From a virus (Duplodnaviria > Caudoviricetes), in IMG/VR virus record IMGVR_UViG_3300030376_005986, positions 1,929 to 65,928 of that record: 64,000 bases of DNA; one strand, written 5' to 3'. Shown one piece after another: positions 17,994 through 37,922 of the stretch. Position 1 is the stretch's first letter. Every line of letters begins with the position of its first letter. Position numbers and translations under genes: made by a program. The notes under the pieces are model-generated. The model was given only the letters and a program-made list of their open reading frames with translations, did not search any database and was not told where the DNA came from.

Positions 17994-19376
17994 ATGAGCA
18001 ATAAGAAAACCCACTTAGAAGACCCTACCGCAGAAAAGGCTCTACTAGGTTGCATAATGATGGACCCTGAAGTTGTAGATAAGCTTCTAGGTAAAACAGA
18101 AAAACCACTACAACTCTTAACGAACCACAGTTGCGTCAACGCAATGGTGGTTATCTTAAAACTAAACGAGACAGGTAAGATCGTAGACAGGGTATCTATC
18201 TCCCATGAGCTACTGAAATCCAACAGGGAAACAAATGCCATAGCATTCATGGACGAATGTGAATCATTAACTCCCTCTTCGTTCAACTGGGAGTACTACT
18301 ATGGAATACTAACTGACCTACACAAAGCCAGAGAAACTAAGAAGCTGTGCGATGAGGTATCTCATAGAATATCAACAGATGGTCATGCTGAGCCTGCAGG
18401 GGTACTAGAAGGCCTTTACGAGAGCGTAGAGGGTCTATGCAGGGATAAGGATAAAGAAACGTCTATAAAGACTTATAAGGAAGTAGCACCTGAAGCTGTA
18501 GAATTTTTCCAAACTTGTTTTGAAAATAAAGGTAAGGTCACTGGTATAACAACAGGTCTCACCAACCTAGATAAAATGATCAACGGTCTTAACAATAGAC
18601 ATCTCAATATCATTGCAGCTAGACCATCAGTAGGTAAGACATCACTAGGAATCTGTATAGCAGATGCTGCAGCTCAAGCAGGTAAAAAGGTTCTGTTCTT
18701 TTCCTTAGAGATGTCAGCACCAGAAATCATGATGAGATCCATATGCTCCAAGATGAACCTCAATTACAGAGATTGTCTACAAGGTGATCTGTCAAATGAC
18801 CAATTAAAAAAAATTTCCTTAGGCATTGATTATGTAGCAAAGTACCCCATCTTCATAGATGACTCCCCCTCCTCTACAATCCATCAAATTAAATCTAAAT
18901 CTAAAAGATATAAACGAGACTTCGGTATTGATATGATCATTGTAGATTACCTTCAGATCATAAGCACAAATAAGAAATACGAAACTAGAGATAGAGAAAT
19001 AGCAGCATACTCCTCCGCTCTTAAACAAATAGCCAGAGAACTAAACGTACCAGTAGTATGCTTATCTCAGTTATCCCGCGAAGGAGCAAAGAATGACAGG
19101 AAACCTAGGCTAACTGACCTAAGAGATAGCGGGGCTATCGAGCAAGATGCCGATGTTGTTGTTATGATTCATAGGGACAATGCCATTGACAATAAGATGG
19201 ATAGGCCATATCCATTGTCTTTAATAGTTGCCAAGCAAAGGAATGGGCCTGTAGGGGAAGTAGATGTAGAATTTGTACCCCAATATACTAAAATGAGAGT
19301 TCCTTCTCTAATTGATAATATTAGTGATCTGCCAGATGCACCGCCCAGAGATTCTTTTGGGTATGCGACCAAGTAA
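17994..19376 (+). CDS. dnaB: Replicative DNA helicase
   Basis: AARPSVGKT, FFSLEMS, IIVDYLQ, LSQLSR, DLRDSGAIEQDADVV, KQRNGP. Confidence 0.95.
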   Translation: MSNKKTHLEDPTAEKALLGCIMMDPEVVDKLLGKTEKPLQLLTNHSCVNAMVVILKLNETGKIVDRVSISHELLKSNRETNAIAFMDECESLTPSSFNWEYYYGILTDLHKARETKKLCDEVSHRISTDGHAEPAGVLEGLYESVEGLCRDKDKETSIKTYKEVAPEAVEFFQTCFENKGKVTGITTGLTNLDKMINGLNNRHLNIIAARPSVGKTSLGICIADAAAQAGKKVLFFSLEMSAPEIMMRSICSKMNLNYRDCLQGDLSNDQLKKISLGIDYVAKYPIFIDDSPSSTIHQIKSKSKRYKRDFGIDMIIVDYLQIISTNKKYETRDREIAAYSSALKQIARELNVPVVCLSQLSREGAKNDRKPRLTDLRDSGAIEQDADVVVMIHRDNAIDNKMDRPYPLSLIVAKQRNGPVGEVDVEFVPQYTKMRVPSLIDNISDLPDAPPRDSFGYATK

Positions 19377-20162: not shown

Positions 20163-20747
20163 TTGATTCCAAAAGCTTCAAATATTCACTTAAACCTAAA
20201 TATTGATATGGCAAATAAACCAACAATAAAAACGGAATCAGTCAACTCGGCTGATAAGACTAATAGACAACCAGAGACGCAACCTGACACGGTTTTTACC
20301 GATCAGGCAAAGTCTAAGACTAGCGAATCTGAAAAGGTCGAAAACGTCACAACTACGGACGCAAGAAAGCCCTTTATTAAGGCTATTCAGAAAGTTGAAA
20401 AAGACGGGAAAGAAATTGAGATTGAAAACGAGATTTTAAACCCAGAATTCATCAGCTTGTGTCAAATTGATTATCCAAAAGCATTCAGCAAAAATGGCCT
20501 TAAAACGGTCATTGAGGCTATCACGGGATCACGGTCGGAAGATCTACCCCATGAGGAATTCAAGGTCATTAAAGCGGCATTCAAGGCCCTTAAGGAGTTC
20601 GGCAAATCTGAATCTCTTAGGGAGGTTACTGATGCGGATGTGGTTGAAATCAAGAAGAAAACCCGCATATATAACGACATTGACAGGACTATGGAAGAAA
20701 AGACTGTTATTCACTGTTCGACCAAGGGCGAGTATTCTAGCAAATAA
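20163..20747 (+). CDS. Hypothetical early protein (probable start ATG about 20208)
   Basis: ORF track; followed by its own terminator. Confidence 0.6.
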   Translation: MIPKASNIHLNLNIDMANKPTIKTESVNSADKTNRQPETQPDTVFTDQAKSKTSESEKVENVTTTDARKPFIKAIQKVEKDGKEIEIENEILNPEFISLCQIDYPKAFSKNGLKTVIEAITGSRSEDLPHEEFKVIKAAFKALKEFGKSESLREVTDADVVEIKKKTRIYNDIDRTMEEKTVIHCSTKGEYSSK

Positions 20748-20790: not shown

Positions 20791-20850
20791 GTTTATACCA
20801 GTACTGTTCAAAATCATCAGGTTAATACTAATTTATTAATCTGATAATTT

Positions 20851-21496
20851 CGAACCGACAGGCTAAGTAATGCTTAGTTATGTGACAGTCAAAGACTGTT
20901 ACGTTGTGTTCGACTGGTAGGATTTATGCCTACTATGTTCTTTGGTGTGCCAGCGTGACGCTGCATATGTGGTGTGTCCCAATGGGATGCATAGTGCTAA
21001 GGCCTTACATGTGAATTGGCGGGAGCTGTGTGATCTGATCAGGTCGATCTGTGTCTGCATTTGTGCGATAGGCAGTGTAGTTAACTGCAGAAGCCATAGA
21101 CTTTAAGTCGGTATAGGTTCTGGAGAACAAGTGAGAACAGACAAGGTGGTCGTTGCAAGGGTATGCGAGACTGATTAGGTGCTACCAACTTCGGGGTAGC
21201 TAGTAGTGGGCATGGAGTGCTTCATGTCTGCGAAGGAAGGGTTAGATACTGGGCATTAAGAAGAGTCCTTTGGATACTTACCTCAACTAACCTCATCCTG
21301 TGTCTGGCCTGAGTGTATGGGTATAACATACATCGAGGGTTTTGTTTCGTCCTATTCTTATTTATCAGGGATATGGAGGCGATTAGATGATGCATATAGT
21401 GAGCCGCTTATGTAGTTCACTGACCATCACACTATGAGCCTCCGTGTCCTTTTTTTGTGTCTATTGCGGGTACATGATAGGCACACAAAAGGGACA
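20851..21496 (+). ncRNA. Candidate large structured non-coding RNA (~650 nt), family not recognised
   Basis: No ORF of 60 aa or more; more than 12 hairpins and nested long-range helices (see findings). Strand inferred from context and G-U pairing. Confidence 0.55.
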
Positions 21497-21530
21497 TGAT
21501 TACATGCACCTTAAATGAGAAAGTAAATAT

Positions 21531-21962: not shown

Positions 21963-22154
21963 ATGAGTGAAGAAAAAAGAAAGGGTAAGGTGGAAACAGT
22001 AAACCTACCACCATCATCTGTAGGCATGTTGGATTTTTATCTGACAGCGATCAGAACAGAAGCAACAGCTAGTCCTTTATATAAGACAGCTGTGAATGAA
22101 TTACGTGAATGGGCTAAGAGCCATGATTATTTAATCAACAAAACAGTATCATGA
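21963..22154 (+). CDS. Hypothetical early protein (63 aa)
   Basis: ORF track; coupled. Confidence 0.55.
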   Translation: MSEEKRKGKVETVNLPPSSVGMLDFYLTAIRTEATASPLYKTAVNELREWAKSHDYLINKTVS

Positions 22155-22240
22155 TCATAAACATACTAGGTGTAGCGGCGTTGATCTTCCTATGCTTATT
22201 CTCAACCATGATACTAATAGACTGGTGGGAGGATTTATAA
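22151..22240 (+). CDS. Single-TM microprotein (29 aa; not in track)
   Basis: MIINILGVAALIFLCLFSTMILIDWWEDL; ATGA and TAATG coupling on its two sides. Confidence 0.5.
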   Translation: MIINILGVAALIFLCLFSTMILIDWWEDL

Positions 22241-22386
22241 TGCAAATGAGAAAGCTAAATAGAAAGAAGAGGAAGAAGGAATCTGACAAAGGACAGATAA
22301 CTTTTAAGAACGTGATAGGAGACTACTTTGTTTCTCCTAAGGAAGGACGGGATAGGTTTGCTAAGATAAGAAAGGAAATTAAATAA
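22240..22386 (+). CDS. Basic microprotein (start probably 22240 rather than 22192)
   Basis: TAATG coupling at both ends. Confidence 0.45.
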   Translation: MQMRKLNRKKRKKESDKGQITFKNVIGDYFVSPKEGRDRFAKIRKEIK

Positions 22387-22745
22387 TGGCTAGGACATAT
22401 TATTCACATGATGAGAATCTTTATAATGCAGAAGATCACTCATCTATTCACTCAAGGCCTTCTGATATTTCAAGAGAGGGGGATAAGTTAAGCTTACCTA
22501 TATACCCCCATTCGAGAAATGTTTACATTGGGAGGAAAGGATCTCCAATGCTCCCAACTGATTGTGAGGATGATGAACTACGTGCTCGTTGTTGTGATAT
22601 AAGTAACGAGTTCTTAATTATGTTAGTACTCTTTGATGAGATAATGGAAGTGCTTGAAGATGCTAGTAAAACAGATCTGAAAGCCAAGTACGTATTAAAA
22701 GATTACAAAGACAGGTTACTTAAAGAAGAGGAGGCTAATCCTTGA
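22386..22745 (+). CDS. Hypothetical protein (119 aa)
   Basis: ORF track; coupled. Confidence 0.55.
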   Translation: MARTYYSHDENLYNAEDHSSIHSRPSDISREGDKLSLPIYPHSRNVYIGRKGSPMLPTDCEDDELRARCCDISNEFLIMLVLFDEIMEVLEDASKTDLKAKYVLKDYKDRLLKEEEANP

Positions 22746-22748
22746 CAA

Positions 22749-23432
22749 ATGTGGGCTACAGTAAATGAAGAACAGCACAATGTTGTTCTATACAATAAAG
22801 CTAGTGGCGAAACTAGTGTGCTAGATTATTCAGAGGATACATCCCTTATGTATATATATGGGCCAAGAATATCTACACACTTTAACTTCATACCATTGAA
22901 CCATAGTTATGTAAAAGTTTCTGATTTTGCTCCTCAGCGAAAGTTAATTACAGGTTATCCTTTATCAAAAGATGAACTCAAGCTGGCACATGACATGTTA
23001 AATAGTATGGCTATGAAGCATGGAACTTATCTTAAGTGGGGAGAGAAAGATTGGTTGAGTGGTGGATACTTGAGCCTATACAACAAGATACTTGAATGTA
23101 TGTATGCAATTAAGAATGGATCTAATATATTCTGGCAATTACCTGAGGCACACTTACATCCAGCGATTCAATGCGAGTTACCTAATCTGTTTCTCAGGCT
23201 TATATACAAAGGGTACTGGGAGCAAGATGATGGGCTTAATATGCTGAGAGAGTTTACTGGGAAAGATGTAGGCCTACCTGATATCAAACTTACTGAACAA
23301 CAAAACAGGAAGACGACTAAGCCTTTAGTAATTACATCTAACTCTGAGCATATAATACTGAGAACTCAGAGATTAATAAGTGACAAAAATATTAGTCACA
23401 AAAGTGTAAGGATAATGCACATGGATATATAA
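22749..23432 (+). CDS. Degenerate ABC-ATPase (AAA_21/DUF3696-like) C-terminal half
   Basis: QLPEAHLHPAIQ resembles EEPEAHLHP..Q; LVITSNSEHIILRTQRLI resembles IITTHSEHIL; no Walker A. Confidence 0.6.
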   Translation: MWATVNEEQHNVVLYNKASGETSVLDYSEDTSLMYIYGPRISTHFNFIPLNHSYVKVSDFAPQRKLITGYPLSKDELKLAHDMLNSMAMKHGTYLKWGEKDWLSGGYLSLYNKILECMYAIKNGSNIFWQLPEAHLHPAIQCELPNLFLRLIYKGYWEQDDGLNMLREFTGKDVGLPDIKLTEQQNRKTTKPLVITSNSEHIILRTQRLISDKNISHKSVRIMHMDI

Positions 23433-23483
23433 TTTAGGATACACAAGTAGTCCTGATATTAAGATGCAGGTCGGGTTGATTAT

Positions 23484-23726
23484 TTGCCCGTCATAGCCGC
23501 TTGTGTATCTGTTTTTACACCAATGAAAATAGATCTAGATCAGATACTATCTGAAGAACAGCACATAAGAGTTAAGAGAATGTTATCATGTGATGCTGGA
23601 AAAGAAATGAGACTAAATGCTCTTAAAGAATTCTACAGAAGACCAGAAGTAGCTGATAATATTATTAAGTCAGGCTACAACACAAACCTGTTAGCATATT
23701 TAACAATCATGAACTATGAAGAATAG
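23484..23726 (+). CDS. Hypothetical protein (probable start about 23523)
   Basis: ORF track. Confidence 0.5.
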   Translation: MPVIAACVSVFTPMKIDLDQILSEEQHIRVKRMLSCDAGKEMRLNALKEFYRRPEVADNIIKSGYNTNLLAYLTIMNYEE

Positions 23727-23946
23727 AAAAGCGTATTCAATAATAGATATTAATAAATCAATTAAAGATAACAAACCCGTCAACCCTGAGAGAGTCAAGG
23801 GAGCTATGATATATAATCATAAGACAGGTGGATCTTTGCAGGTGATGTCACAAAAACAGCATCAAGAGTTCAAGAAGCATGGATCAAGGAAAGGGCAATC
23901 AAGTACACTAAGAAATGTTTTAGTAGCTAATGGTAGATTGCAGTAA
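23716..23946 (+). CDS. Hypothetical basic protein (76 aa)
   Basis: ORF track. Confidence 0.5.
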   Translation: MKNRKAYSIIDINKSIKDNKPVNPERVKGAMIYNHKTGGSLQVMSQKQHQEFKKHGSRKGQSSTLRNVLVANGRLQ

Positions 23947-24046
23947 GAATTTCTAGTCAACGATGACTGAAAACAGGAGAACTCCCATCCCGTGTGATCC
24001 TGTCTTGTAACATGGCGTAATGCCTAGGGATAATAGGAGAAGTTAT

Positions 24047-24490
24047 ATGATTAATATAACAGTTCGTTATGGATTGGAGCGTCAAGCTACAATCGAGGTT
24101 GAGGATGGTTCATCTATCGCTCAAGTGTTAGAGAAGGTTCGTCCTGCTCTAGGTTTTGGCAGCAATGTTAAAGCCATGATTGGTGGTGTTACTCAGCCAG
24201 AATCTAACAGTGTTAGATGTGGTGATGTAATCACTGTCGAAACTGCGGCCAATTCAAAGGCAGCAGATGAGGTTTCCGTGACCGTCAAGTATGGTCTTGA
24301 GCGGAGCATCACAACCTCTGTTCCAGTGGGTAGTTCCATTGGTGATGTACTCAGAAGAGTACGTGCAGCACTGGGCTTTGGCGATAATGTCAAAGCGTTA
24401 ATCGACGGGGCTACTCAGCCTGAATCAAACACTGTCGCTGAAGGTGACGTGATCAGTGTTGAAACCGCAGCCAACTCAAAGGCTGTATAA
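24047..24490 (+). CDS. Tandem di-ubiquitin-like (beta-grasp) protein, 147 aa from ATG 24047
   Basis: AGGAG SD at about 24035. Two ~72-aa repeats (ITVRYGLERQATIEV...GDVITVETAANSKA and VTVKYGLERSITTSV...GDVISVETAANSKA) plus a final Val; upstream of E2, E1 and JAB genes. Confidence 0.85.
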   Translation: MINITVRYGLERQATIEVEDGSSIAQVLEKVRPALGFGSNVKAMIGGVTQPESNSVRCGDVITVETAANSKAADEVSVTVKYGLERSITTSVPVGSSIGDVLRRVRAALGFGDNVKALIDGATQPESNTVAEGDVISVETAANSKAV

Positions 24491-24531
24491 CTCTGGCCTT
24501 ACAAGGCTAGCCTTTTAGGAGCAGAACTGCA

Positions 24532-24566
24532 GCCCTCACGGGTAAAACCGTGGGGGCTTTCTGTTT
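24532..24566 (+). terminator. Intrinsic terminator between the Ubl and E2 genes
   Basis: GCCCTCACGG-GTAAAA-CCGTGGGGGC-TTTCTGTTT. Confidence 0.7.
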
Positions 24567-24585
24567 CTATACAATAAATAATAAT

Positions 24586-25434
24586 ATGAAATACGAAGAT
24601 ATAATAAAATCAAAACACTTGATACTAACAGATCAAGGTGTGTTCGAACCTGAATACAGAATGATGTATAAAGGTACAATGGATCAAAGATTAAAGCGTC
24701 ATATAGAATCTCAACCAATGATGGTTAATAATATATCATCAATGGCTGGTATGCCTATGAATTTTTCTAGGCTTGAACCTAAAGGGGAAGATTCTATATC
24801 ACTAAGCTTAGTAACCACTCAATTGAGTAAGCTTAAGTTTAACACAACATTTGAAATAATAACTAAAGATGTGTTTATGCTTTTCTCAAATGATAACGAG
24901 AAAGAATGTATAGATTTTGATGGACTACCTGACAAGTGGTTGTCCCCTACATTTAGGAATGGCGATTCAGAATCTAGAAGTAACAGGCAGACTTACACGT
25001 TGGACTGGGAAGTTCCTGAATATATAAAATTATATATTACAATGGAGTACCACGGGAAAACAGATAACAATACATGGCGACCAGCTAGAAGTTATCTTCA
25101 CTGCAAGATTGAATCTCATGAAAGTAATAAATGGCATGAGGAATCTAAAGGGTGGTTTGTTTTACCTACAGGTAATGTTTATGAGAACAGTGAAATATGT
25201 TTTGGTGAAACTTACATGGAGGACATAGGAATTGTTGATGCAACTAAGAAGAACATAGACTTATTCTATAGTACTCCTTGGAACTCTGACTTAACAAACT
25301 CAACTAAAGGTAGGAACTCATCAGTACTGTTCAGGTTTTGTGCAGATACAAACCAGCAGTTAGGTGTTCCGTGTCCTGCTCATATTCTTATGGAGAGTTT
25401 CAGTAAAACTTACTTAGAAAATATAAGCGTATAA
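24586..25434 (+). CDS. Prokaryotic E2 family D (PRTRC protein B-like) conjugating enzyme; probable start ATG 24586
   Basis: LPTGNVYENSEICFG...LFYSTPWNSDL matches the family pattern P..NVy..g.iC.G...F..s.fN.dL, with putative catalytic Cys in ICFG. Confidence 0.8.
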   Translation: MKYEDIIKSKHLILTDQGVFEPEYRMMYKGTMDQRLKRHIESQPMMVNNISSMAGMPMNFSRLEPKGEDSISLSLVTTQLSKLKFNTTFEIITKDVFMLFSNDNEKECIDFDGLPDKWLSPTFRNGDSESRSNRQTYTLDWEVPEYIKLYITMEYHGKTDNNTWRPARSYLHCKIESHESNKWHEESKGWFVLPTGNVYENSEICFGETYMEDIGIVDATKKNIDLFYSTPWNSDLTNSTKGRNSSVLFRFCADTNQQLGVPCPAHILMESFSKTYLENISV

Positions 25435-25436
25435 CA

Positions 25437-25808
25437 ATGAAAATAAATTCAATACCAAAGTCAATGACGATTATAGATAATCAACTTGTCGCAGAGATGA
25501 GTGATCTAGAAGAGAGGTCAATAAAAAGCGAAGCTATGATTATTACATCTATAATGAGGGAAAGGCCTGAAGAGTTTTCTAATGTAAGATCTTTAGAATC
25601 AATTGGAAGCTTAGGTAGGGAGAAACTGTGGAAGTTGATATGGATCTACCTTAGGCAAGGTAACAGGATAGAGGGAATGGGTGATGAGCATACAGATATG
25701 CTTCTGAATCCACTGTACTTTATTAGATCTAAGATAACCCAATGTGAAAAAAGAACTTTATCACAGAGTATTTTAGATGAATGCATTAGATTACGAACGG
25801 TGGAGTAA
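25437..25808 (+). CDS. Hypothetical helical protein inside the Ubl operon (123 aa)
   Basis: Tightly packed between E2 and E1. Confidence 0.6.
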   Translation: MKINSIPKSMTIIDNQLVAEMSDLEERSIKSEAMIITSIMRERPEEFSNVRSLESIGSLGREKLWKLIWIYLRQGNRIEGMGDEHTDMLLNPLYFIRSKITQCEKRTLSQSILDECIRLRTVE

Positions 25809-26546
25809 ATGTTTATTTTTAATATACCCAATGACATGAACAGACATTATCATATAATAGGAGCAGGCGGAGTAGGTAGTTGGTTACTACCTGCTCTGGT
25901 TAAACTAGCAGATCAACATGATTCCATTACTATACATGATGGAGATGATCTAGAGTTGAAGAACATGGACAGGCAACTGTTCAGAAAAGAAGACATAGGT
26001 TCTAACAAAGCGGAAGCACTTTCATCTAGGTATAAGAATGAAGCTCAGTGCATGATGTATACAGTACCTAGGTATTTCTCAGGAGAACTGGAAGGAGTCA
26101 TTGGTTCACCAGAATACACATGGCTTCTTGGTTGTGCCGATAATCATCCAGCTAGGAAGCTAATACTGGAGGCATGTGATACTCAGGGATACAAATCAAT
26201 CATAGGTGGTAACGGTTACACTGATGCTGATGCATACTTCTATGAGTCTAGTATGCGTGGGACTCCATGTGATCCACGGGTTTATTATCCTGATATACTA
26301 ACTGACACGACAGGTTCACCTATACATGCAGCGGGATGTACTGGTGAAGCACAAGATGAAACACCTCAACTTGTGCTGGCTAATATGTGGGCAGCAGCTC
26401 ACATGTTACATCTACTGTGGTATCACACTGAGATAGCTAAAGATATACCAGAAGATATGGAGGAACATATGCCTATGCTTTCTAGGAACTCAGCTTATAT
26501 GTTTGAGACAGTAAAGAAAGGTATGCTTAAAGGAACATTAAGTTAA
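25809..26546 (+). CDS. ThiF/E1-like Ubl-activating enzyme
   Basis: IIGAGGVGSW, DGDDLELKNMDRQ, GSNKAEAL, GCADNHPAR, then putative catalytic Cys in AAGCTG...PQLVLAN..AA. Confidence 0.9.
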   Translation: MFIFNIPNDMNRHYHIIGAGGVGSWLLPALVKLADQHDSITIHDGDDLELKNMDRQLFRKEDIGSNKAEALSSRYKNEAQCMMYTVPRYFSGELEGVIGSPEYTWLLGCADNHPARKLILEACDTQGYKSIIGGNGYTDADAYFYESSMRGTPCDPRVYYPDILTDTTGSPIHAAGCTGEAQDETPQLVLANMWAAAHMLHLLWYHTEIAKDIPEDMEEHMPMLSRNSAYMFETVKKGMLKGTLS

Positions 26547-26559
26547 GAGAGGAAATCGA

Positions 26560-27762
26560 ATGAGCCATGAATGTAGAATTTGCTTGGAAGCATTCATCCC
26601 AAATCAACCGTGGCAGGTATTATGCGGAAACAAAAACTGTTCGATTGAGAACAGGAAAAGAAACCGAAAGAAAAAATATCTAGAAGATCCAAAGGTAAAA
26701 GAATACAACAGGATATATGATAGTAAAAGGAGAGCTAAGGTTGAATCAAAAAAACCAAAAGGAAATAACTGTAAGCATTGTGGTAGCTGGTATAAATACC
26801 CATTCACCAAAAAAAATAAAGAAGGGGATTTAAATATAAACAGGGCAGTAAAATACTGCAGCTTAAAATGTAGAGAGAAATCTAAAAGTGTAAGACTACA
26901 AGGTGGTGGTCTTGTTTTTTTTAAAGGAGAAATAAAGCATTGGAAAAAAGTGAAAAAACATGAATGCAAAATCTGCAATAATACATTTGATGCAGAAAAA
27001 CTAGTGATAAGAGATGGAAAAAAATTCAAACAATATTTAAAGAATGCTTTATATTGTTCTGATAAGTGTAGGAAAGAAGCAACGAACGTCCTCTCTAGAG
27101 AGCGTTGGTGGCAAGGGGAAAGAGAAAAATACCTTAAGAAAAAAAGAAAAGGCAATTGTGTAGTTTGTGGTTTAATATACCACACCTTCAGTGGAAGACA
27201 GAAAACATGCCTTAAAAAAGAATGCCAAAGAGAAAGCCACCAAAGAGGCGTTAGGGTAAACAAAGGGCAAGAAGAAATACCCGTTGATAAGATACATAAA
27301 ATTAAATGTGAATACGACAAGTGCGGGAAAGTTTTTACTTGTAGAAAATCCACAAATTCAACAGGCAATCTCCCTAAGCACTGCTCCCGTGCTTGCGTTA
27401 AAAATAAACATGCTGATAATGTTAGGCATAGTTTAGATCATAAAATTAAAAGCAGGTTAAGATCTAGGGTAAGGTCTGCTCTAATGAACAACGCAAGGGG
27501 TAAAATAAACAAAGCTAAAAAAACAGAAGAACTTTTAGGTTGTAAAATATCTGAGTTGAAGAGTTTGTTTTCTAAAAAGTTTACACAAGGAATGTCGTGG
27601 AAGAAATTTCTAGCAGGCGAGATACACATAGACCACATCAAGCCGTGTATTTCATTCGATCTAACGAAGGAATCAGAGCAGAGGAAGTGCTTCAACTATA
27701 AGAACCTTCAGCCCCTATGGGCTAAGGATAATCTTAGCAAGGGTGCTAAGATAGCAGCATAA
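26560..27762 (+). mobile_element. HNH homing endonuclease with multiple CxxC Zn-finger repeats
   Basis: C-terminal HIDHIKPC..FDL....QRKCFNYKNLQPLWAKDNLSKG; repeated CxxC...YCS.KC units. Confidence 0.8.
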
Positions 27763-27766
27763 TTTT

Positions 27767-28333
27767 ATGGAGCAGATAACCATAGAAGGGATACTCGACC
27801 AACCCTTAATACAATTGGTCAAGAACGCACCATCTAATCCTATAACAAGGGGACAGATACGTGCCGCCACTAATCTGGTCATACCAGATGGAGTGATAAC
27901 AACGGAAGGCATAACTCAATATGTCTTGGAGAACTATGATGCAAGTAAAGCACCGTCCAAACCTGTGCTAAGGCTTGGAAGGCAAATGGATGGAGGTAAT
28001 GTAATATTTACTGATACATTCAGCGGATCTGAAACAAGGTATTACAGAACCACGGAGTCACTAGTTGCTTACATAGAAGAAGACGTGACGTTTACCGAGG
28101 CAGACTTTGATAATTGCCATGACAAAGAAGATATTATGAATGCTATAGAACGTAAGATTAATGATGAAGTATCTATCGGAGAAGTAGTAGACGAAGCTCA
28201 TCACGAAACTGTAGACAGGGAACTAGATGACAGTAGTGACCTTGACGTTGACTATAACCTTGAGGAAATTTGGGCTGAACATGGTGAAGCTATTGCAGCT
28301 AGCCTTGGATTAGCCATTGAAGAACTAGAATAA
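27767..28333 (+). CDS. Acidic hypothetical protein inside the Ubl operon (188 aa)
   Basis: D/E-rich C-terminal half; immediately precedes JAB. Confidence 0.6.
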   Translation: MEQITIEGILDQPLIQLVKNAPSNPITRGQIRAATNLVIPDGVITTEGITQYVLENYDASKAPSKPVLRLGRQMDGGNVIFTDTFSGSETRYYRTTESLVAYIEEDVTFTEADFDNCHDKEDIMNAIERKINDEVSIGEVVDEAHHETVDRELDDSSDLDVDYNLEEIWAEHGEAIAASLGLAIEELE

Positions 28334-28335
28334 CA

Positions 28336-29406
28336 ATGAACCTAATACTACATAAAGATACTGTTTATGAAACAGTAGAATCAGAATACTACACGGGGCA
28401 TCAACCAGTGAAGATAGTAAAAGGAGAGCCTAGCCTCTCTTGGAAAGGTGGTAAGATACCAATAGAAGAATGGAATAAAATACTAGCATTCTTCAAGTGG
28501 TCTTACGACGAGACTAAAAGCGAGACGCAAGTGCGTCTGTTGTATAACCCTACTGAAAACAAGTGGGCAGCATGGGCGTTCCCTCAGGAACACGGTACAG
28601 GTATGACAACGAAAGAGATAGATGGGGTTGATAAAGATACCCAAAGAGAAAAGTTCTCTGGTTACATTGTCAACGGAACTGTTCATCACCATTGTTCATC
28701 ATCTGCATTCCAGTCAGGAACTGACAAGGACAATGAACAAAGCCAAGACGGGGTGCATATTACAGTAGGACACATGGATACACAAAAGTATGACATACAT
28801 GCTAGAGTGTGTAGATCCAACTCAATGTATTCATGTTCATACAGTGAATGGTTTGATTACCCTGATGAATGGACAAGCATACTTCCTAAGAAGTTTATCA
28901 ATGAAGCTGTCAAAGAAGTGTTAGTTACCCCGCCTAGTGAACCTTCGTTCCCTGAAGAGTGGAAAAGTAATCTTATTAAAGTAGAGAAATCTATTTATTC
29001 TGGGTGGAGCGGAAGAAGAAATTACAGTAATGATGATTGGTATCAATCACAAAAGACTCACTTCAATACGCCGACTAAACTTCCTGCAGAATATACAGAA
29101 GAAGAGAAGAAGGAAGAGATAACTAAGCTTATAAAAGAATGGCTTGATGAGAACGGAGATTCGTTACAAATGGATGCTATGGATCTATTGGAAATGTGGG
29201 AGTATGTATTGATTGCAGATAAGGTTATAGATCTGAATGAAGCTATAGATAAAATGGAAATCACTGAAACGGAATTCGAATCATATTGTCAGTCAATCAC
29301 ACTTGACGAGGCCAACAATCATATGGATGACACAGTTGAAAAAGAAGACATCACCATTGAAGGAGACATTAAGTATACAGATCACTATGGCAGCTATGGA
29401 TTATGA
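28336..29406 (+). CDS. JAB/MPN+ metalloprotease (PRTRC protein A-like deconjugase) with acidic C-terminal extension
   Basis: Upstream Glu in SETQVRLLY; HxH-x7-S-x2-D in TVHHHCSSSAFQSGTDKDNE; DGVHITVG. Confidence 0.85.
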   Translation: MNLILHKDTVYETVESEYYTGHQPVKIVKGEPSLSWKGGKIPIEEWNKILAFFKWSYDETKSETQVRLLYNPTENKWAAWAFPQEHGTGMTTKEIDGVDKDTQREKFSGYIVNGTVHHHCSSSAFQSGTDKDNEQSQDGVHITVGHMDTQKYDIHARVCRSNSMYSCSYSEWFDYPDEWTSILPKKFINEAVKEVLVTPPSEPSFPEEWKSNLIKVEKSIYSGWSGRRNYSNDDWYQSQKTHFNTPTKLPAEYTEEEKKEEITKLIKEWLDENGDSLQMDAMDLLEMWEYVLIADKVIDLNEAIDKMEITETEFESYCQSITLDEANNHMDDTVEKEDITIEGDIKYTDHYGSYGL

Positions 29407-29621
29407 ATCTTGGGGAGCATCAAACAACAGAAGAAGGAGATCCCGTCCTATTCTGGTTGGAAATAGGGGAGGAAGGATTGGATGAGGTGCTAATTGAAAA
29501 CGGAATAGTACCTTGTCATTTACATAGGAACCTAGCCACTGACAAGCTAAGAGCTGACTCCTTGTCATGGGTTAGAGATACAGTAGAAGAGTTAGCTGAA
29601 GAACTAAGAAATAATAACTAA
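29403..29621 (+). CDS. Hypothetical protein (72 aa)
   Basis: ATGA overlap with JAB. Confidence 0.55.
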   Translation: MNLGEHQTTEEGDPVLFWLEIGEEGLDEVLIENGIVPCHLHRNLATDKLRADSLSWVRDTVEELAEELRNNN

Positions 29622-29622
29622 A

Positions 29623-30588
29623 ATGGAAAACATAATATATGAACAACAGATAGATCCTGTTACCGCGAACTTAGCACGACATGTGTATAAGTGTAGACCG
29701 AAAACAAATGTCACAAGAGGTTTACCTGAGTGGCATAAAGCAATGAGAGACTTCAAGATTCACAACAGTTTACTTAATCTAAGTAACTCTCATCATAGAG
29801 GTGGAGGCTTACATGATAGGCATTCATATCATCACCATTGTTTTGATAATACGTATGCTGAGGTGGTTGATACTCTACCAGAACATCATTACCACAAGTT
29901 CTACTTAAGCCCTGAGTCAACTAGATGGAGCTTAGCGGACACCATGAACATAGAGAGCATACCTTACTGGAAATACATAAGGTTATATTATGTCTCTCAT
30001 GTGTTTAATTGGAACGAAAATGCTACTGGAGCAGACCGTGTTAGTTTTAGCAGAAGAGAGCACACCTTTGCTGTGTGGGGTAGAGATGGAAGGGTAAGGT
30101 TAGCACCTAATGCTATGTTATCAGAGGGAAAAGGTATTAGCTTATACAATAGGTTGAACGGGTTAATGGGTTTTAGTTATCAAAGAACTCAAAGTGACGA
30201 TGATCAACCAGTTTTCTCAGTTGAATCAGGAATGCTTAGAATTAATAGAACAATTAAAACTCATAGGAACTACTCAGAAAATATAACAAGTATGCCTGTA
30301 ATGAACGGAGATATAATCGACGTTAAGACAGGAGAACATCATTCAAGATGGATGCATCGTGAACGAGAGATGCCTGACATAATGTCTGACATCAAACTTA
30401 AAAGACAACTACCTTCTCAAATCAGATCTCAGTTTACAAATGCACCAATGAATCCATCTGTAAGGTCAGCGATTCGTGCGGAGATTAATCAAGTTGTTCC
30501 TGATCAAGTTCAAGATATAGAAGCATTAGATAGGTTTCTTAATGAAGGTAGAACTATTCTCTCAGAAAAAGGAGTGTTCATATTATGA
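29623..30588 (+). CDS. Hypothetical protein (321 aa, His-rich segment)
   Basis: ORF track. Confidence 0.65.
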   Translation: MENIIYEQQIDPVTANLARHVYKCRPKTNVTRGLPEWHKAMRDFKIHNSLLNLSNSHHRGGGLHDRHSYHHHCFDNTYAEVVDTLPEHHYHKFYLSPESTRWSLADTMNIESIPYWKYIRLYYVSHVFNWNENATGADRVSFSRREHTFAVWGRDGRVRLAPNAMLSEGKGISLYNRLNGLMGFSYQRTQSDDDQPVFSVESGMLRINRTIKTHRNYSENITSMPVMNGDIIDVKTGEHHSRWMHREREMPDIMSDIKLKRQLPSQIRSQFTNAPMNPSVRSAIRAEINQVVPDQVQDIEALDRFLNEGRTILSEKGVFIL

Positions 30589-30881
30589 GTAAGGAAAGAA
30601 AAATATTAAAAGGTCAAATCCTTTCCAAGGATTTTAAATCTAACAAAGCTAAAGGATTCAGTATTAAAGAGAGCAATAGTACACCAGAATACACATGCCA
30701 AGCTACCATTGGTGACTCTGGCCACACAGTGCTAGATGGAGATGTTCATAAAACTAAGTTACAAATAGGAGCTAAGATTAAAGAGAACATCCTGTCTGGT
30801 CGCTGGCCTGCAGAAACTAGAGCAGAGATAGAAATGCTTAGAAAGCACAGAGAAGAACTAGAAAAGAAAAAGAAAAAATGA
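30585..30881 (+). CDS. Hypothetical basic protein (98 aa)
   Basis: ATGA coupled. Confidence 0.55.
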   Translation: MSKERKILKGQILSKDFKSNKAKGFSIKESNSTPEYTCQATIGDSGHTVLDGDVHKTKLQIGAKIKENILSGRWPAETRAEIEMLRKHREELEKKKKK

Positions 30882-31153
30882 ATCCGTTTGAATATAATTC
30901 TATTCACCTTAACGAGGCTGGATACAGGTTCGGCATAGCCAAACTTAAAGGGAAGACATCCAAGGCTCTGCTTAAAACAAAAGAAGAAGGGGTCTTGGTT
31001 GTGCCTTTATGGGTTAACCCTGACAAGACAAGCAAGGATACACTGTATGCTATATTAGGCAGCGAACCTAAGATCGGAGAGCATTCAGAGGTAGAGATCC
31101 CTCAGGAGGAAGTAAAGAACCTGATATATTCAGAGCCAGTTCGTTTTAATTAA
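30878..31153 (+). CDS. Hypothetical protein (91 aa)
   Basis: ATGA coupled. Confidence 0.55.
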   Translation: MNPFEYNSIHLNEAGYRFGIAKLKGKTSKALLKTKEEGVLVVPLWVNPDKTSKDTLYAILGSEPKIGEHSEVEIPQEEVKNLIYSEPVRFN

Positions 31154-31207
31154 TTTGCTTTTTAAAAAAATAAATGATAATTATTTTTTTTAATTGCTAG
31201 CATACAC

Positions 31208-31465
31208 ATGGAACAGAAAATACTAAATGATACAAGAGAGCTGCTAGAGGCATCTAAAAATACTCTAGTAAAATGTATCGAAGAAATGAATGAGTTCTCT
31301 CACAACTCCAGATTAAAAGGAGGAGATGCAACGGACTGGGTTAAGAGATACCAGACTGTTAGGAATAAGCTGAATGAGTGTGAAGATATACTGGACGATC
31401 TTAAAGAAAAGTATTCCGACACTTGTTTCAACTATGGAGATGAAGAAAATGTCGAAGTTTTATAA
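31208..31465 (+). CDS. Hypothetical coiled-coil protein (85 aa)
   Basis: Follows an A/T inverted repeat (31164-31190). Confidence 0.55.
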   Translation: MEQKILNDTRELLEASKNTLVKCIEEMNEFSHNSRLKGGDATDWVKRYQTVRNKLNECEDILDDLKEKYSDTCFNYGDEENVEVL

Positions 31466-31679
31466 ACTATCACATAGAAATCTGCACCTTGGCGTTCTTG
31501 TAAACTGGGCAACCACTAAAAAGGAAGCCTATAAAATGAGGAGTGATATAAGGAACAGATACAGAAAATGTCCTGAAGACTATGAATCTCCAGTAGAAAT
31601 AAGCGAGGTAGATATTCCTAAAGACAAGGCTGGTTTATGTAGATGGCTTAATAATCAAAACATGAAAGACAATGGATAA
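31374..31679 (+). CDS. Hypothetical protein (true start probably near 31449)
   Basis: ORF track. Confidence 0.45.
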   Translation: MSVKIYWTILKKSIPTLVSTMEMKKMSKFYKLSHRNLHLGVLVNWATTKKEAYKMRSDIRNRYRKCPEDYESPVEISEVDIPKDKAGLCRWLNNQNMKDNG

Positions 31680-32735: not shown

Positions 32736-33617
32736 ATGAGCCTAAAGTTCAATAAAGCTACAAAGAAGAAAGCCAAGTTAAGGGCAGGCCTATATGGTAC
32801 GTCTGGAAGTGGCAAGACAATGACCGCTCTACTTATTGCCAAAGGCATGGGTGGAAAGACAGCGTTCATTGACACCGAACATGGGAGTGCAAGTAAGTAT
32901 TCAGACTTGTTTGACTTTGATGTTTGTGAGTTGGATTCCTTCAATCCGAAGGAACTTATAAAGGGATTGGAAGACATCCCTACCGAATACGATACCGTTG
33001 TTATTGATTCCATGTCAGCATTCTGGCAAGGAGAGAATGGTATCTTACAACAAGTAGAGAACGCTGGGAAGCGTAGCCAAGGTGGGAATTCTTTTCGTGC
33101 TTGGGCTGACGTTTCTCCTATGCTGAACAGGATCAACGACTTAGTAATGGGTGCTCCTTATCATGTGATTACCACATTAAGAGCGAAGACTGATTACGTT
33201 GTTGAGAAGAACGAAAAAGGAAGACAAGCTCCAAGGAAGATAGGACTAGCCCCTGTTTACAAAGAAGGCTGGGAATATAACTTAGACTTCATTGCCCGTA
33301 TGGACACTGATAACAGCTTGATAGTTGAGAAGACTAGGATTCCTGAGTTCGCTGGAGAAGTAATAAGTAAACCTGACGAAGAGGTAGGTAAGAGATTAGC
33401 TGCATGGTTAGGTCAAGGAGAGAAAGTTCCTACTGACATTGAACAATTAGAAGTTCTTATATCTGAGATAACTACACCTAAAAAGTTTATAGAGATAGCT
33501 ATTAGGAGAGGTACTTTAGATGAGAAGATTAAAGATATATCACTCATTCCAAAGGATCAGGTTAAATCTTTTATTAAGAACTGGAATAGTATTGTTCCTA
33601 TACTTGAGGAGAAATAA
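32736..33617 (+). CDS. AAA_24 / Sak4-like recombination ATPase
   Basis: GLYGTSGSGKT, IDTEHGS, VVIDSMS, KEGWEYNLD. Confidence 0.85.
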   Translation: MSLKFNKATKKKAKLRAGLYGTSGSGKTMTALLIAKGMGGKTAFIDTEHGSASKYSDLFDFDVCELDSFNPKELIKGLEDIPTEYDTVVIDSMSAFWQGENGILQQVENAGKRSQGGNSFRAWADVSPMLNRINDLVMGAPYHVITTLRAKTDYVVEKNEKGRQAPRKIGLAPVYKEGWEYNLDFIARMDTDNSLIVEKTRIPEFAGEVISKPDEEVGKRLAAWLGQGEKVPTDIEQLEVLISEITTPKKFIEIAIRRGTLDEKIKDISLIPKDQVKSFIKNWNSIVPILEEK

Positions 33618-34393
33618 TGGCTTTAGTAAGACCAGATAATTCTGCTCACTGGTACACTAGTGAGGGGAAACCTAAGCACACTAGAGACAACGGAAAGCCA
33701 ACGACCCTGAAAGATGCTAGGGTCGAAGGCTTATTCCCCAGTGTCACCTCAATATTGAACGTCATGTCAAAGCCAGCACTTGAAAGCTGGAAGATAGAAC
33801 AAGGAATACTATCTGCACTTAGACTTGATCAAGGAGAAGATGAATCAACTGAATCATTTGCTAAAAGAATTGTAGCAGATATGAAAGTTGCAACATCATC
33901 AGCAGCTATATTTGGTACTAAAGTTCATAACGCTTTAGAGCAATACAACATAGATAGAACTGAGCCTAAAGAGGATGATGAAGTCTATGATTGGTTTAAA
34001 GAATATCAACCTTGGTTTGATCAGAACATAACCAAGGTTTACCAAGCTGAGCAGGTGTTGGTTAATCATCAACATGGGTATGCTGGAACTGTGGACTTAG
34101 TAGCTGATCATAATCTCTGGGGTAAATGTGTAATAGATTTCAAGACACAAGGGGTTAAAAGAAAAGCTAGGTTTTATGAGACATGGGTATACCAGCTTGC
34201 CGCTTATCAGCAATGCATAGAGGGAGACACAAAGTGTTTATCTCTAGTAATAGATTCTAAGGCTCCAACTGAACCTGTAGAAAAACTATGGGGTACAGAT
34301 GAGGTCGAGGAAGGTTGGGATATATTTAAACTATCCAACCAATTGTATCAGAAAACAAAAAACTACAAGCCTCCAGTAAAGGGGGTATTCTAA
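33617..34393 (+). CDS. PD-(D/E)XK exonuclease
   Basis: FPSVTSIL, GTKVHNALE, YAGTVDL, IDFKT, YQLAAY. Confidence 0.85.
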   Translation: MALVRPDNSAHWYTSEGKPKHTRDNGKPTTLKDARVEGLFPSVTSILNVMSKPALESWKIEQGILSALRLDQGEDESTESFAKRIVADMKVATSSAAIFGTKVHNALEQYNIDRTEPKEDDEVYDWFKEYQPWFDQNITKVYQAEQVLVNHQHGYAGTVDLVADHNLWGKCVIDFKTQGVKRKARFYETWVYQLAAYQQCIEGDTKCLSLVIDSKAPTEPVEKLWGTDEVEEGWDIFKLSNQLYQKTKNYKPPVKGVF

Positions 34394-37547: not shown

Positions 37548-37922
37548 ATGTCTCAGAAATTACCAACAGAAGTAGATATACTTAACCTAACCTACAAGAT
37601 TAACTGGATGGAACCTCCTGAAGAATCAGGTGCTGAACAGTTAGGACTGTGTGACTTCCAAGAACAAATCATATCTGTAACCAAGTCATTACCTAGGCAG
37701 TCAAGAGCCGAGACTCTATTACATGAAATTATTCATGCGATTAATCACGGCATGGGTGCTCCTAATAAAATAGACGAAGAAAAGTTTACTGGTAAGATGT
37801 CTATAGGTATGGCTACAGCTATCAAGCAAAGCCCTGAGGTTTGGAAGTGGATCATGAAAGAGATCTGCTACAAAACACCAAAGCCTAGAAAGAAAACAGT
37901 TAGTAAGTCCTCCGTAAACTAG
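37548..37922 (+). CDS. HExxH zinc metallopeptidase-like protein
   Basis: LGLCDFQEQIISV....RAETLLHEIIHAI. Confidence 0.7.
   Translation: MSQKLPTEVDILNLTYKINWMEPPEESGAEQLGLCDFQEQIISVTKSLPRQSRAETLLHEIIHAINHGMGAPNKIDEEKFTGKMSIGMATAIKQSPEVWKWIMKEICYKTPKPRKKTVSKSSVN

Follow-up and report, generated by a model that had tools for sequence, protein, structure and literature searches.

Why would a phage carry what looks like a full set of genes for ubiquitin-like protein conjugation? Conjugation of this kind has been shown in bacteria only recently and, to our knowledge, solely in host systems that defend against phages (Bil, CBASS Cap2/Cap3 and Bub). We analysed a window of 64,000 nt from a 66-kb uncultured marine phage genome (an IMG/VR record; CheckV completeness estimate, 92%), in which an earlier note had described four co-oriented genes for a ubiquitin-like protein (Ubl), an E2, an E1 and a JAB protease, each with its characteristic motifs. 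All four genes were verified, in their coordinates, + strand orientation and motifs, within a cassette at 24047-29406 (+) that lies inside the replication operon, in the early region. They had also been called tightly packed; the block in fact holds seven ORFs in the order Ubl, E2, X, E1, HNH, Y and JAB, with a small variable ORF X between E2 and E1, and two genes, for an HNH endonuclease (an insertion) and for the acidic protein Y, between E1 and JAB (Table 1). Contigs of independent marine metagenomes cover the cassette stretch at 99% identity.

Table 1. Features of the cassette and of the adjoining downstream region (positions in the window).
Feature	Position	Strand	Remarks
Ubl gene	24047..24490	+	two tandem predicted beta-grasp units; 147 aa
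Terminator-like hairpin, between Ubl and E2 genes	24531..24568	+	folding/terminator scan
E2-like carrier enzyme, 282 aa	24586..25434	+	invariant Asn197 and Cys205
ORF X, 123 aa	25437..25808	+	small ORF, position kept in most related loci
E1-like adenylating enzyme, 245 aa	25809..26546	+	Pfam ThiF
HNH endonuclease	26560..27762	+	phrog_1271 at 4.7e-8
ORF Y, 188 aa	27767..28333	+	between E1 and JAB
JAMM/MPN+ metalloprotease (JAB), 356 aa	28336..29406	+	exact E...HxHx7Sx2D motif
s72	29403-29621	+	start overlaps JAB stop codon
Z, His-rich	29623-30588	+	translationally coupled downstream ORF

The earlier note had proposed a survey of phage sequences for the same gene order. Among 81 independent phage contigs fetched with the JAB, all from a virus-contig collection, 66 carry Ubl, E2, E1 and JAB in the same order and on the same strand; in the remaining 15 the contig breaks off no more than 2 kb 5' of the JAB gene. 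The conservation of the four-gene order is far beyond chance. The cassette occurs on at least three backbones that are unrelated to one another. In a comparison of six genomes the cassette genes alone were common to all, with TerL related in only 2 of 5. Each of the 13 matches in cellular genomes carries the same phage-type cassette. Among the relatives is at least one integrated prophage, in a Verrucomicrobiota (Limisphaerales) MAG, which suggests a host group for some of the family at least. In PHROG scans, none of the ten longest ORFs in the window matched an integrase.

The JAB protein is a member of the JAMM/MPN+ metalloproteases. Its family comprises more than 600 sequence clusters, and the motif E63...H117-x-H119-x7-S127-x2-D130 is invariant in 74 relatives. 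Beyond the catalytic domain (about residues 30-215) the chain continues as a disordered linker and ends in a helical domain. Foldseek matched Rpn11 (1e-6) and BilC (8e-6), and in VIA-align the best structural match was the bacterial deubiquitinase BilC (Z 12.4, rmsd 3.2 A, 140 residues), followed by Sst2 (12.2), PfJAMM1 (11.6) and Cap3 (10.1). By sequence, the JAB matches PRTRC_A at E 9.5e-4, and 7 of 40 relatives match Prok-JAB.

The Ubl, the presumptive tag, is predicted to be a beta-grasp ubiquitin-like protein of two units. Both units match the family HMM (E 1e-25 and 2.5e-28), and the family profile matches ubiquitin chains in the PDB (E 0.002-0.009). A few family members match ThiS, TUG-UBL1 or BilA: Pfam ThiS is matched by 2 of 50 relatives (best 3e-6), and matches to BilA (E about 1e-3; 1.1e-3 for the window protein with the PADLOC model) are limited to tandem Ubls. 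The gene is preceded by an AGGAG ribosome-binding site. Each of the two repeats has an ETAANSKA end, and one additional Val follows at the C-terminus. Across 62 distinct relatives the penultimate Lys is invariant and the next residue is Ala in most, replaced by Gly, Asn or Gln in a few. Thirty relatives (half) stop exactly at ...KA and the rest go on for another 1 to about 30 variable residues, a pattern that would be expected of a precursor trimmed by the JAB. A single unit is found in most relatives; the tandem form is confined to four lineages, all of which keep Lys-Ala at the internal junction. Eukaryotic polyubiquitin precursors are likewise made of head-to-tail units, with an extra last residue that a deubiquitinase removes. 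The phage Ubl resembles them in its head-to-tail units and the extra residue after the last, but it has two units only, and its internal junction is a putative cleavage site. We know of no characterised Ubl that ends in a residue other than Gly, and the C-terminal Lys-Ala is unlike all of them.

The E1-like protein scores 63.3 bits (E 2.4e-17) against Pfam ThiF (PF00899; gathering threshold 28.1) and belongs to that family. It is a minimal enzyme that consists of a single ThiF/MoeB-type domain. In 73 relatives the residues of nucleotide binding and adenylation (the GxGG motif, D44, D46, N52, R55, Q56, K67, D111, N112 and R116) are invariant, and Cys177 is the single invariant cysteine. Its sequence matches in the PDB are TcdA, UBA7, UBA1, UBA5 and ThiF; in PADLOC it matches Cap2 models (E about 3e-8), and the 25 best matches there are all Cap2-type E1-E2 models. 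The CYS domain and the Zn-binding cysteines that BilD and canonical E1s possess are missing from the protein, and therefore a thioester on E1 is not assured.

In the E2-like protein, an N-terminal beta-rich extension precedes a UBC-like core, and the sequence contains NVYE...ICFG. The family (321 representatives) is highly diverged; with a mean column identity of 13% over 65 relatives, N197 (25174-25176) and C205 (25198-25200) are the sole invariant residues and are candidates for the catalytic pair. The HMM searches that the earlier note had suggested gave a divided answer, with ThiF above its cut-off, the PRTRC models below theirs and the window E2 below that of Pfam Prok-E2_D (E 0.021, 15 bits against 25). 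Prok-E2_D is nevertheless matched by 19 of the 65 relatives (best 5.1e-8). The predicted structure (pLDDT 89) runs from a helix through a beta-meander and the Asn/Cys loop to further helices. In a structure search with this model, at least 23 of the top 30 matches were UBC/UEV proteins, all of them weak (Z <= 4.5); a chain of the BubCD-BubB-BubA complex was also among the matches (Z 3.8), and Foldseek returned no match. The profile matches and the predicted fold point to a probable, divergent UBC-type E2.

These conserved residues bear on two other explanations. The phage proteins could act as a decoy or sponge that jams host Ubl immunity (Bil, CBASS Cap2/Cap3) without conjugating anything, as the phage context and the likeness of the JAB to BilC and Cap3 might suggest. 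Yet all catalytic residues of E1, E2 and JAB are invariant across very divergent sequences, which is unexpected of decoys, and the JAB alone would suffice to reverse host marks, yet the four genes are always kept; we consider a decoy highly improbable. Much the same verdict falls on a sulfur-carrier or biosynthetic system (ThiS/ThiF, MoaD/MoeB) or an MccB-like one for peptide adenylation, with a thiocarboxylate or an adenylated peptide as product in place of a protein conjugate. The best named HMM matches of the E1 are ThiF, MoeB and TcdA, the two ThiS-matching Ubl relatives point the same way, and sulfur assimilation is known to employ JAB-ThiS/MoaD-E1 sets (Iyer et al. 2006). However, an E2-like protein with the invariant Asn and Cys is always present, the Ubl end is not Gly-Gly, the E1 falls far below every equivalog cut-off, and the scanned cassette ORFs include no rhodanese, cysteine desulfurase or cofactor genes. 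We give this explanation very little credence.

The spacer between the Ubl and E2 genes holds a hairpin with an 11-bp stem (8 GC pairs), after which comes TTCTGTTTCT. No other site within 22000-31500 ranks higher as a terminator-like element, and its folding energy is -44.4 kcal/mol (z -7.25). Of 56 distinct loci, 47 have an unusually structured spacer here, and a stable hairpin lies 3' of the Ubl gene in most loci. The remaining ORFs of the block differ in how they are kept. ORF X had no family matches in HMM searches, and its sequence is not conserved between subclades (hhalign probability 0.6%). The HNH endonuclease carries Zn-ribbon-like repeats; it is also present in contigs of independent marine metagenomes but is missing at the corresponding position in the relative L005 and in most others, and is an insertion into the operon, not a component of the pathway. 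ORF Y, conserved at its N-terminus and acidic at its C-terminus, gave no family match in HMM searches and no Atlas lead; it occupies the E1-JAB interval of 38 loci and of Verrucomicrobiota contigs, and is missing where the E1 and JAB genes overlap. Downstream, s72 and Z are both translationally coupled; their homologues were found only in the closest relatives (L003, L004 and L005), and whether these two genes are part of the system is uncertain.

How does the cassette relate to known systems? The earlier note had named PRTRC and Bil as relatives; the resemblance to both stands, but neither set of defining features is present. PRTRC (ParB-related, ThiF-related cassette) belongs to plasmids and conjugative elements. 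Among NCBIfam models, those closest to the E1, JAB and E2 are the PRTRC ThiF, the JAB-like protein A and protein B, respectively; in the E2 gene of one relative, PRTRC_B and Prok-E2_D match over the same stretch. We reject membership on the scores of PRTRC_ThiF (43.1 against 144.75 bits, at 3.1e-11) and PRTRC_A (18.8 against 101.8). PRTRC_B had no match in the window and reached 12.2 against 131.45 bits in the relative G003, and neither PRTRC_C nor PRTRC_E matched in five complete genomes, although a control genome did.

The Bil systems (types I and II) are ISG15-like anti-phage operons that attach their Ubl to tail proteins of phages; they are borne by the bacterial host, in contrast to the phage-borne cassette. 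In both, the Ubl, E2, JAB deubiquitinase and E1 are encoded by separate genes, and the Ubl may have more than one beta-grasp unit and variable residues past a conserved C-terminal residue. In type II BilA these variable residues come after a conserved Gly, which is where BilC cuts (Chambers et al. preprint); a C-terminal Gly exposed by BilC is universal in Bil. The phage Ubl has a conserved Ala after its invariant Lys in place of that Gly, which excludes it from Bil. The enzymes exclude it as well: none of the 65 E2s matches any PADLOC model, and BilD has two adenylation domains, one inactive and one active, plus a CYS domain, and its residue numbers run beyond 490, whereas the phage E1, at 245 aa, has one adenylation domain and half the size.

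Other systems share parts of the design. With type II CBASS the cassette shares the likeness of its E1 domain to Cap2 and of its JAB to Cap3; in Cap2, however, E1 and E2 are fused, CBASS conjugates the CD-NTase and not a Ubl, and HMM searches of the scanned window region found no CD-NTase or effector. Bub (formerly 6E; BubAB, BubCD) likewise brings together a Ubl, E2, E1 and peptidase, and has multi-beta-grasp Ubls, but it works through oxyester intermediates and has a peptidase-E1 fusion without catalytic cysteine; the phage genes are unfused, and their E1 and E2 each keep an invariant Cys. Phages lambda and T1 encode a Ubl-JAB pair, TAPI (Ubl) and TAPK (JAB plus NlpC/P60) (Iyer et al. 2006), which has no E1 or E2, belongs to a tail-assembly module and has a C-terminal Gly on the Ubl, whereas the present cassette lies among replication genes. 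Our search of the literature found no published description of the phage cassette.

The earlier proposal of a complete Ubl/E2/E1/JAB pathway in the early region of a phage is supported by HMM matches, predicted folds, invariant residues and co-occurrence. The analysis identifies the four proteins (the Ubl and the E2 as probable members of their superfamilies) and shows that their catalytic residues are intact and unchanged among relatives, that the Ubl end has the pattern of a precursor, and that the genes strictly occur together, in phages. It is probable that the cassette is a self-contained, phage-owned machine for ubiquitin-like conjugation and deconjugation. The weak scores of the window E2, the non-Gly end of the Ubl and the pared-down E1 speak against it. 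All of its chemical steps, and its target, we infer. The Ubl would be produced as a precursor and, given the strong hairpin 3' of its gene, in excess over the enzymes. The JAMM protease would cut off the residue or residues past the conserved Lys-Ala, and may also cleave the Lys-Ala junction between units, as in polyubiquitin. The E1, probably as a homodimer, would then adenylate the exposed C-terminal Ala and load the Ubl onto Cys177. The Ubl would next pass to the E2, where Cys205 would receive it and Asn197 would play the part of the Asn in the eukaryotic HPN motif. Finally, the E2 would move the Ubl onto an amino group of the target, and the JAMM protease could reverse the mark. As no E3 is apparent, the N-terminal domain of the E2 may choose the target.

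Against whom would such a machine be directed? The earlier note had suggested that it may tag host proteins, regulate proteins of the phage itself, or compete with or reverse host defence based on Ubls. The same machinery could serve a phage or prophage as a Bil-like exclusion system that tags the structural proteins of superinfecting competitors. Defence genes are common on prophages. The JAB is structurally closest to BilC, the cassette moves among unrelated phage backbones, and the Limisphaerales prophage would suit such a role. Sequence membership in Bil is lacking, however, by E2, E1 and Ubl end alike, all 81 contigs are from the virus-contig collection and the cellular matches phage-type, and the window cassette sits within the replication operon with no integrase among the ORFs scanned; we regard exclusion of competitors as unlikely. 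That the cassette alone is common to phages with unrelated backbones favours a host-supplied target, or a role in conflict (host takeover or counter-defence), over a lineage-specific virion protein. We tentatively propose, at somewhat less than an even chance, a widespread and horizontally exchanged 'viral ubiquitin' system of phages, distinct from all bacterial ones. Its minimal homodimeric E1, E2 targeting domain and Lys-Ala tag (with a polyubiquitin-like precursor in some lineages) would mark host proteins or other molecules during infection to take over or disarm the cell, as a mirror of Bil defence.

The phage side thus carries a full kit of its own, and not as a one-off but in many unrelated phages. 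If active, the cassette would extend the known chemistry of the ubiquitin type by a C-terminus other than glycine (Lys-Ala) and by an E1 of 245 aa, and would offer a compact set of four proteins for tests in E. coli. Protein tagging would then be used on both sides of the conflict between phages and bacteria.

The Ubl (tag), E2 (carrier), E1 (activating enzyme) and JAB (JAMM protease) genes that the earlier note proposed for this phage were confirmed as a set. All four pathway genes are there, but the tight packing ascribed to them is not: the block comprises seven genes. A survey of phage contigs bears out the gene order. Using iterated HMMs, seeded with the window and two relatives, we analysed 80 IMG/VR loci retrieved with a JAB profile; Ubl, E2, E1 and JAB follow one another in that order on one strand in 66 of the 81 distinct contigs, and the other 15 all end within 2 kb upstream of JAB.

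Features of the cassette region and phage hallmark genes (window coordinates)
Feature	Position	Strand	Remarks
Large terminase subunit	12530-14068		phage hallmark
DnaB-like helicase	17994-19376		phage hallmark
ORF upstream of cassette	22749-23432	+	227 aa
Ubl	24047-24490	+	147 aa; AGGAG ribosome-binding site upstream
Terminator-like hairpin	24531-24568	+	followed by a T-rich run
E2	24586-25434	+	282 aa
X	25437-25808	+	123 aa
E1	25809-26546	+	245 aa
HNH endonuclease	26560-27762	+	400 aa; between E1 and Y
Y	27767-28333	+	188 aa, acidic
JAB	28336-29406	+	356 aa
s72	29403-29621	+	72 aa; start overlaps JAB stop
Z	29623-30588	+	321 aa
Sak4-like annealing protein and exonuclease	32736-34393		phage hallmarks
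Giant ORF	37900-50961	-	4353 aa; structural arm

The source record, an IMG/VR virus genome, has 65,928 bp, of which the window is bases 1929-65928, with an estimated completeness of 92% (CheckV). Structural genes, including one ORF of 4353 aa, occupy the minus strand, and the cassette sits in a plus-strand block together with replication and recombination genes. At least half of the stretch's sampled words are present in each of eight runs belonging to several marine metagenome studies. Contigs from those runs cover 23500-30700 at ~99% identity, indicating that the sequence is real and recurrent in the sea. Two runs, X3 and X4, gave identical contigs and depths across the whole stretch, and so probably represent a single data set deposited twice, to be counted once. 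Among 50,697 GenBank phage records, neither blastn of the cassette nor tblastn of JAB and of TerL returned a match. A related Limisphaerales prophage has one ORF of 5547 aa or more (L104) and another of 2285 aa (L103), whereas the longest ORFs in other cassette-bearing genomes reach only 1187-2919 aa. The ORF directly upstream of the cassette matches, over short stretches, the PADLOC ATPase models HEC-03B (1.1e-8), PDC-M55A and NsnB; its product might represent a defence-type ATPase, as a fragment or as a decoy. At window positions 20800-21500, 3' of the ORF at 20163-20747, both strands lack a long ORF.

The earlier note's reading, a complete Ubl pathway encoded by the phage, is supported by HMM matches, predicted folds, invariant catalytic residues and the joint occurrence of the four genes. 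E1 is the firmest identification among the four proteins. The HMM check was borne out for ThiF (Pfam, 63.3 bits; cut-off 28.1) but not for the window's E2 or the PRTRC models, which stayed below their cut-offs. E1 also matches the ThiF, MoeB, TcdA, PRTRC_ThiF, Cap2 and UbaA models in part, in every case under the equivalog cut-off, and its sequence matches in the PDB include TcdA, UBA7, UBA1, UBA5 and ThiF. Invariant in 73 relatives are G18, G20, G21, D44, D46, N52, R55, Q56, K67, D111, N112, R116 and N135, together with one cysteine, C177. The phage E1 consists of one adenylation domain; unlike BilD (Chambers et al. preprint), it has neither a CYS domain nor an additional, inactive adenylation domain.

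JAB matches the JAMM motif exactly (E63...H117-x-H119-x7-S127-x2-D130), with no variation across 74 relatives. A predicted model (pLDDT 84.8, built on 40 sequences) matched Rpn11 (1e-6), BilC (8e-6) and AMSH in Foldseek, and VIA-align gave BilC a Z of 12.4 (rmsd 3.2 A over 140 residues), followed by Sst2 (12.2), PfJAMM1 (11.6) and Cap3 (10.1). The helical domain at residues 255-334 has no clear structural match, and a PDB search with the JAB family sequence profile gave nothing meaningful. Clustered at 90% identity, the family exceeds 600 clusters, and many of these lie on contigs of 50-70 kb.

E2 is the weakest link of the cassette, yet several lines of evidence from sequence and predicted structure concur. 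Alone, the window protein scores 15 bits against Prok-E2_D (cut-off 25); at E <= 1e-3 the family comprises 321 representatives, and of the 65 members aligned, 19 match this model, the best at 5.1e-8. N197 and C205 are the sole invariant residues across the 65 sequences (mean column identity 13%), and their spacing parallels that of the HPN-motif Asn and catalytic Cys of eukaryotic E2s. In the confident model (pLDDT 89.2, pTM 0.82), a helix precedes a beta-meander, after which come the Asn/Cys loop and further helices. Foldseek returned no PDB match at E <= 0.001, and in BFVD its matches were limited to uncharacterised proteins of uncultured phages. A structure search independent of Foldseek placed UBC/UEV proteins in at least 23 of the 30 top rows, all of them weak (Z <= 4.5) and including UbcH5c, E2S, UbcH7, Pex4, UbcH10, UBC9 and a Bub-complex chain. 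Neither a PDB search with the family sequence profile (nothing meaningful) nor the PADLOC models (no match for any of the 65 relatives) added to this.

The window Ubl consists of two units, 67% identical to each other, and matches the PADLOC BilA model at E 1.1e-3. Its family profile matches ubiquitin chains in the PDB (E 0.002-0.009), and a few relatives match ThiS (3e-6) or TUG-UBL1. Most informative is the C-terminus, where an invariant Lys is followed by Ala in most relatives and by Gly, Asn or Gln in a few. Of 62 distinct sequences, 30 stop precisely at ...KA; the remainder carry 1 to ~30 unconserved residues past the conserved end, in the window a single one, Val147. Type II BilA shows the same C-terminal pattern around a conserved Gly, where BilC trims (Chambers et al. 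preprint), a correspondence suggesting that JAB trims the Ubl before its C-terminal Ala is activated. Four lineages have tandem Ubls, with Lys-Ala kept at every internal junction even where the rest of the first unit has drifted, which would fit, but does not prove, cleavage as in a polyubiquitin precursor. The Ubl-E2 spacer is unusually well folded in 47 of 56 distinct loci (median z -4.35), and the window's hairpin outranks every other terminator-like site in the region; with it, more tag than enzymes would be made.

From sequence and comparison we infer a cycle in which JAB would trim the Ubl precursor and E1 would adenylate the C-terminal Ala. The Ubl would then be relayed via Cys177 of E1 and Cys205 of E2 and transferred to a target, a mark that JAB could reverse.

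The cassette looks functionally like Bil, and the main rival account of its role is a Bil-like exclusion of rival phages. Membership of Bil itself was rejected, as the conserved C-terminal Gly and, by the PADLOC models, homology to BilB and BilD are missing and the genes sit in a phage rather than a host genome. So was identity with CBASS Cap2/Cap3, whose enzymes are fused and lack a Ubl, and with Bub, which uses oxyester chemistry without a catalytic Cys. Among sequence models, PRTRC ThiF, A and B come closest, all scoring far below cut-offs; PRTRC_C and PRTRC_E found no match in five complete genomes. The lambda TAPI/TAPK phage Ubl-JAB pair differs in having neither E1 nor E2 (Iyer et al. 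2006). A literature search, with subscription journals mostly outside its coverage, found no description of a complete phage-borne E1/E2/JAB/Ubl set. The sole GenBank phage match of E1 is a ThiF with 25% identity, from FpV4-like phages of Flavobacterium. In FpV4 (NC_041872.1, 58902-69504; locus L086), one of these cultured F. psychrophilum phages, it is annotated 'thiamine biosynthesis protein', and gp51, upstream of it, matches Prok-JAB weakly (E 0.0076). The cassette HMMs found no E2 or Ubl there. Given this different arrangement, with the weak Prok-JAB match upstream rather than downstream, we rejected the locus as the same cassette; it may be a different phage ThiF/JAB system.

A small ORF is usual between the E2 and E1 genes across the family, although for X no homology was found between subclades. 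Y, for which Pfam, PHROG, PADLOC and Atlas gave no lead, occurs in roughly half of the family; the remaining half has overlapping E1 and JAB genes. The HNH gene is an insertion in the block. Its product has several Cys-rich Zn-ribbon-like repeats and looks like a homing endonuclease with the operon as its landing site. The closest related loci L003 and L004 have HNH genes of different size at the same spot, and the L005 copy lies elsewhere. An HNH-less variant was not seen among contigs of four marine runs, two of them apparently the same data set. Downstream, s72 is highly conserved (motif GIVPCHLHRNL) and Z is His-rich with a conserved C-terminal motif, NPSVRSAIR. Translational coupling links both genes to JAB; they are found only in the closest relatives and could be lineage-specific partners or substrates.

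Five cassette-bearing genomes are 98-100% complete, and only two of them have a TerL related to the window's. When all window ORFs were compared by jackhmmer, only Ubl, E1 and JAB were common to all five; E2 was common to four (all five by iterated HMM) and Y to three, and structural and replication genes were common only with the two TerL-related genomes. GC ranges from 38% to 61% across these genomes and the window (38.5%). Judged from such gene comparisons, the cassette is independent of any single phage lineage. With DnaB as an anchor, a search for related phages that might lack the cassette retrieved just three contigs, all close and truncated. Species-representative genomes yielded 13 loci, 12 of them in Verrucomicrobiota MAGs, and those cellular loci that are not cut short keep the same gene order. 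One lies on a 125.6-kb Limisphaerales MAG contig (L089, G001:C37), where the cassette spans ~11-15 kb, giant ORFs occupy 37-62 kb and an integrase gene follows at 84.9-85.4 kb. On the far side of that gene the contig rises to 70% GC and carries bacterial genes (TonB-dependent receptor, hybrid histidine kinase, AmpH-like protein), so this relative appears to be an integrated prophage.

Comparison of the window ORFs with the five complete genomes revealed no co-inherited candidate target, which speaks in favour of a target that is generic or supplied by the host, and of the cassette being a module exchanged between phages. Its role is most likely a benefit to the phage, whether host-directed or in counter-defence.
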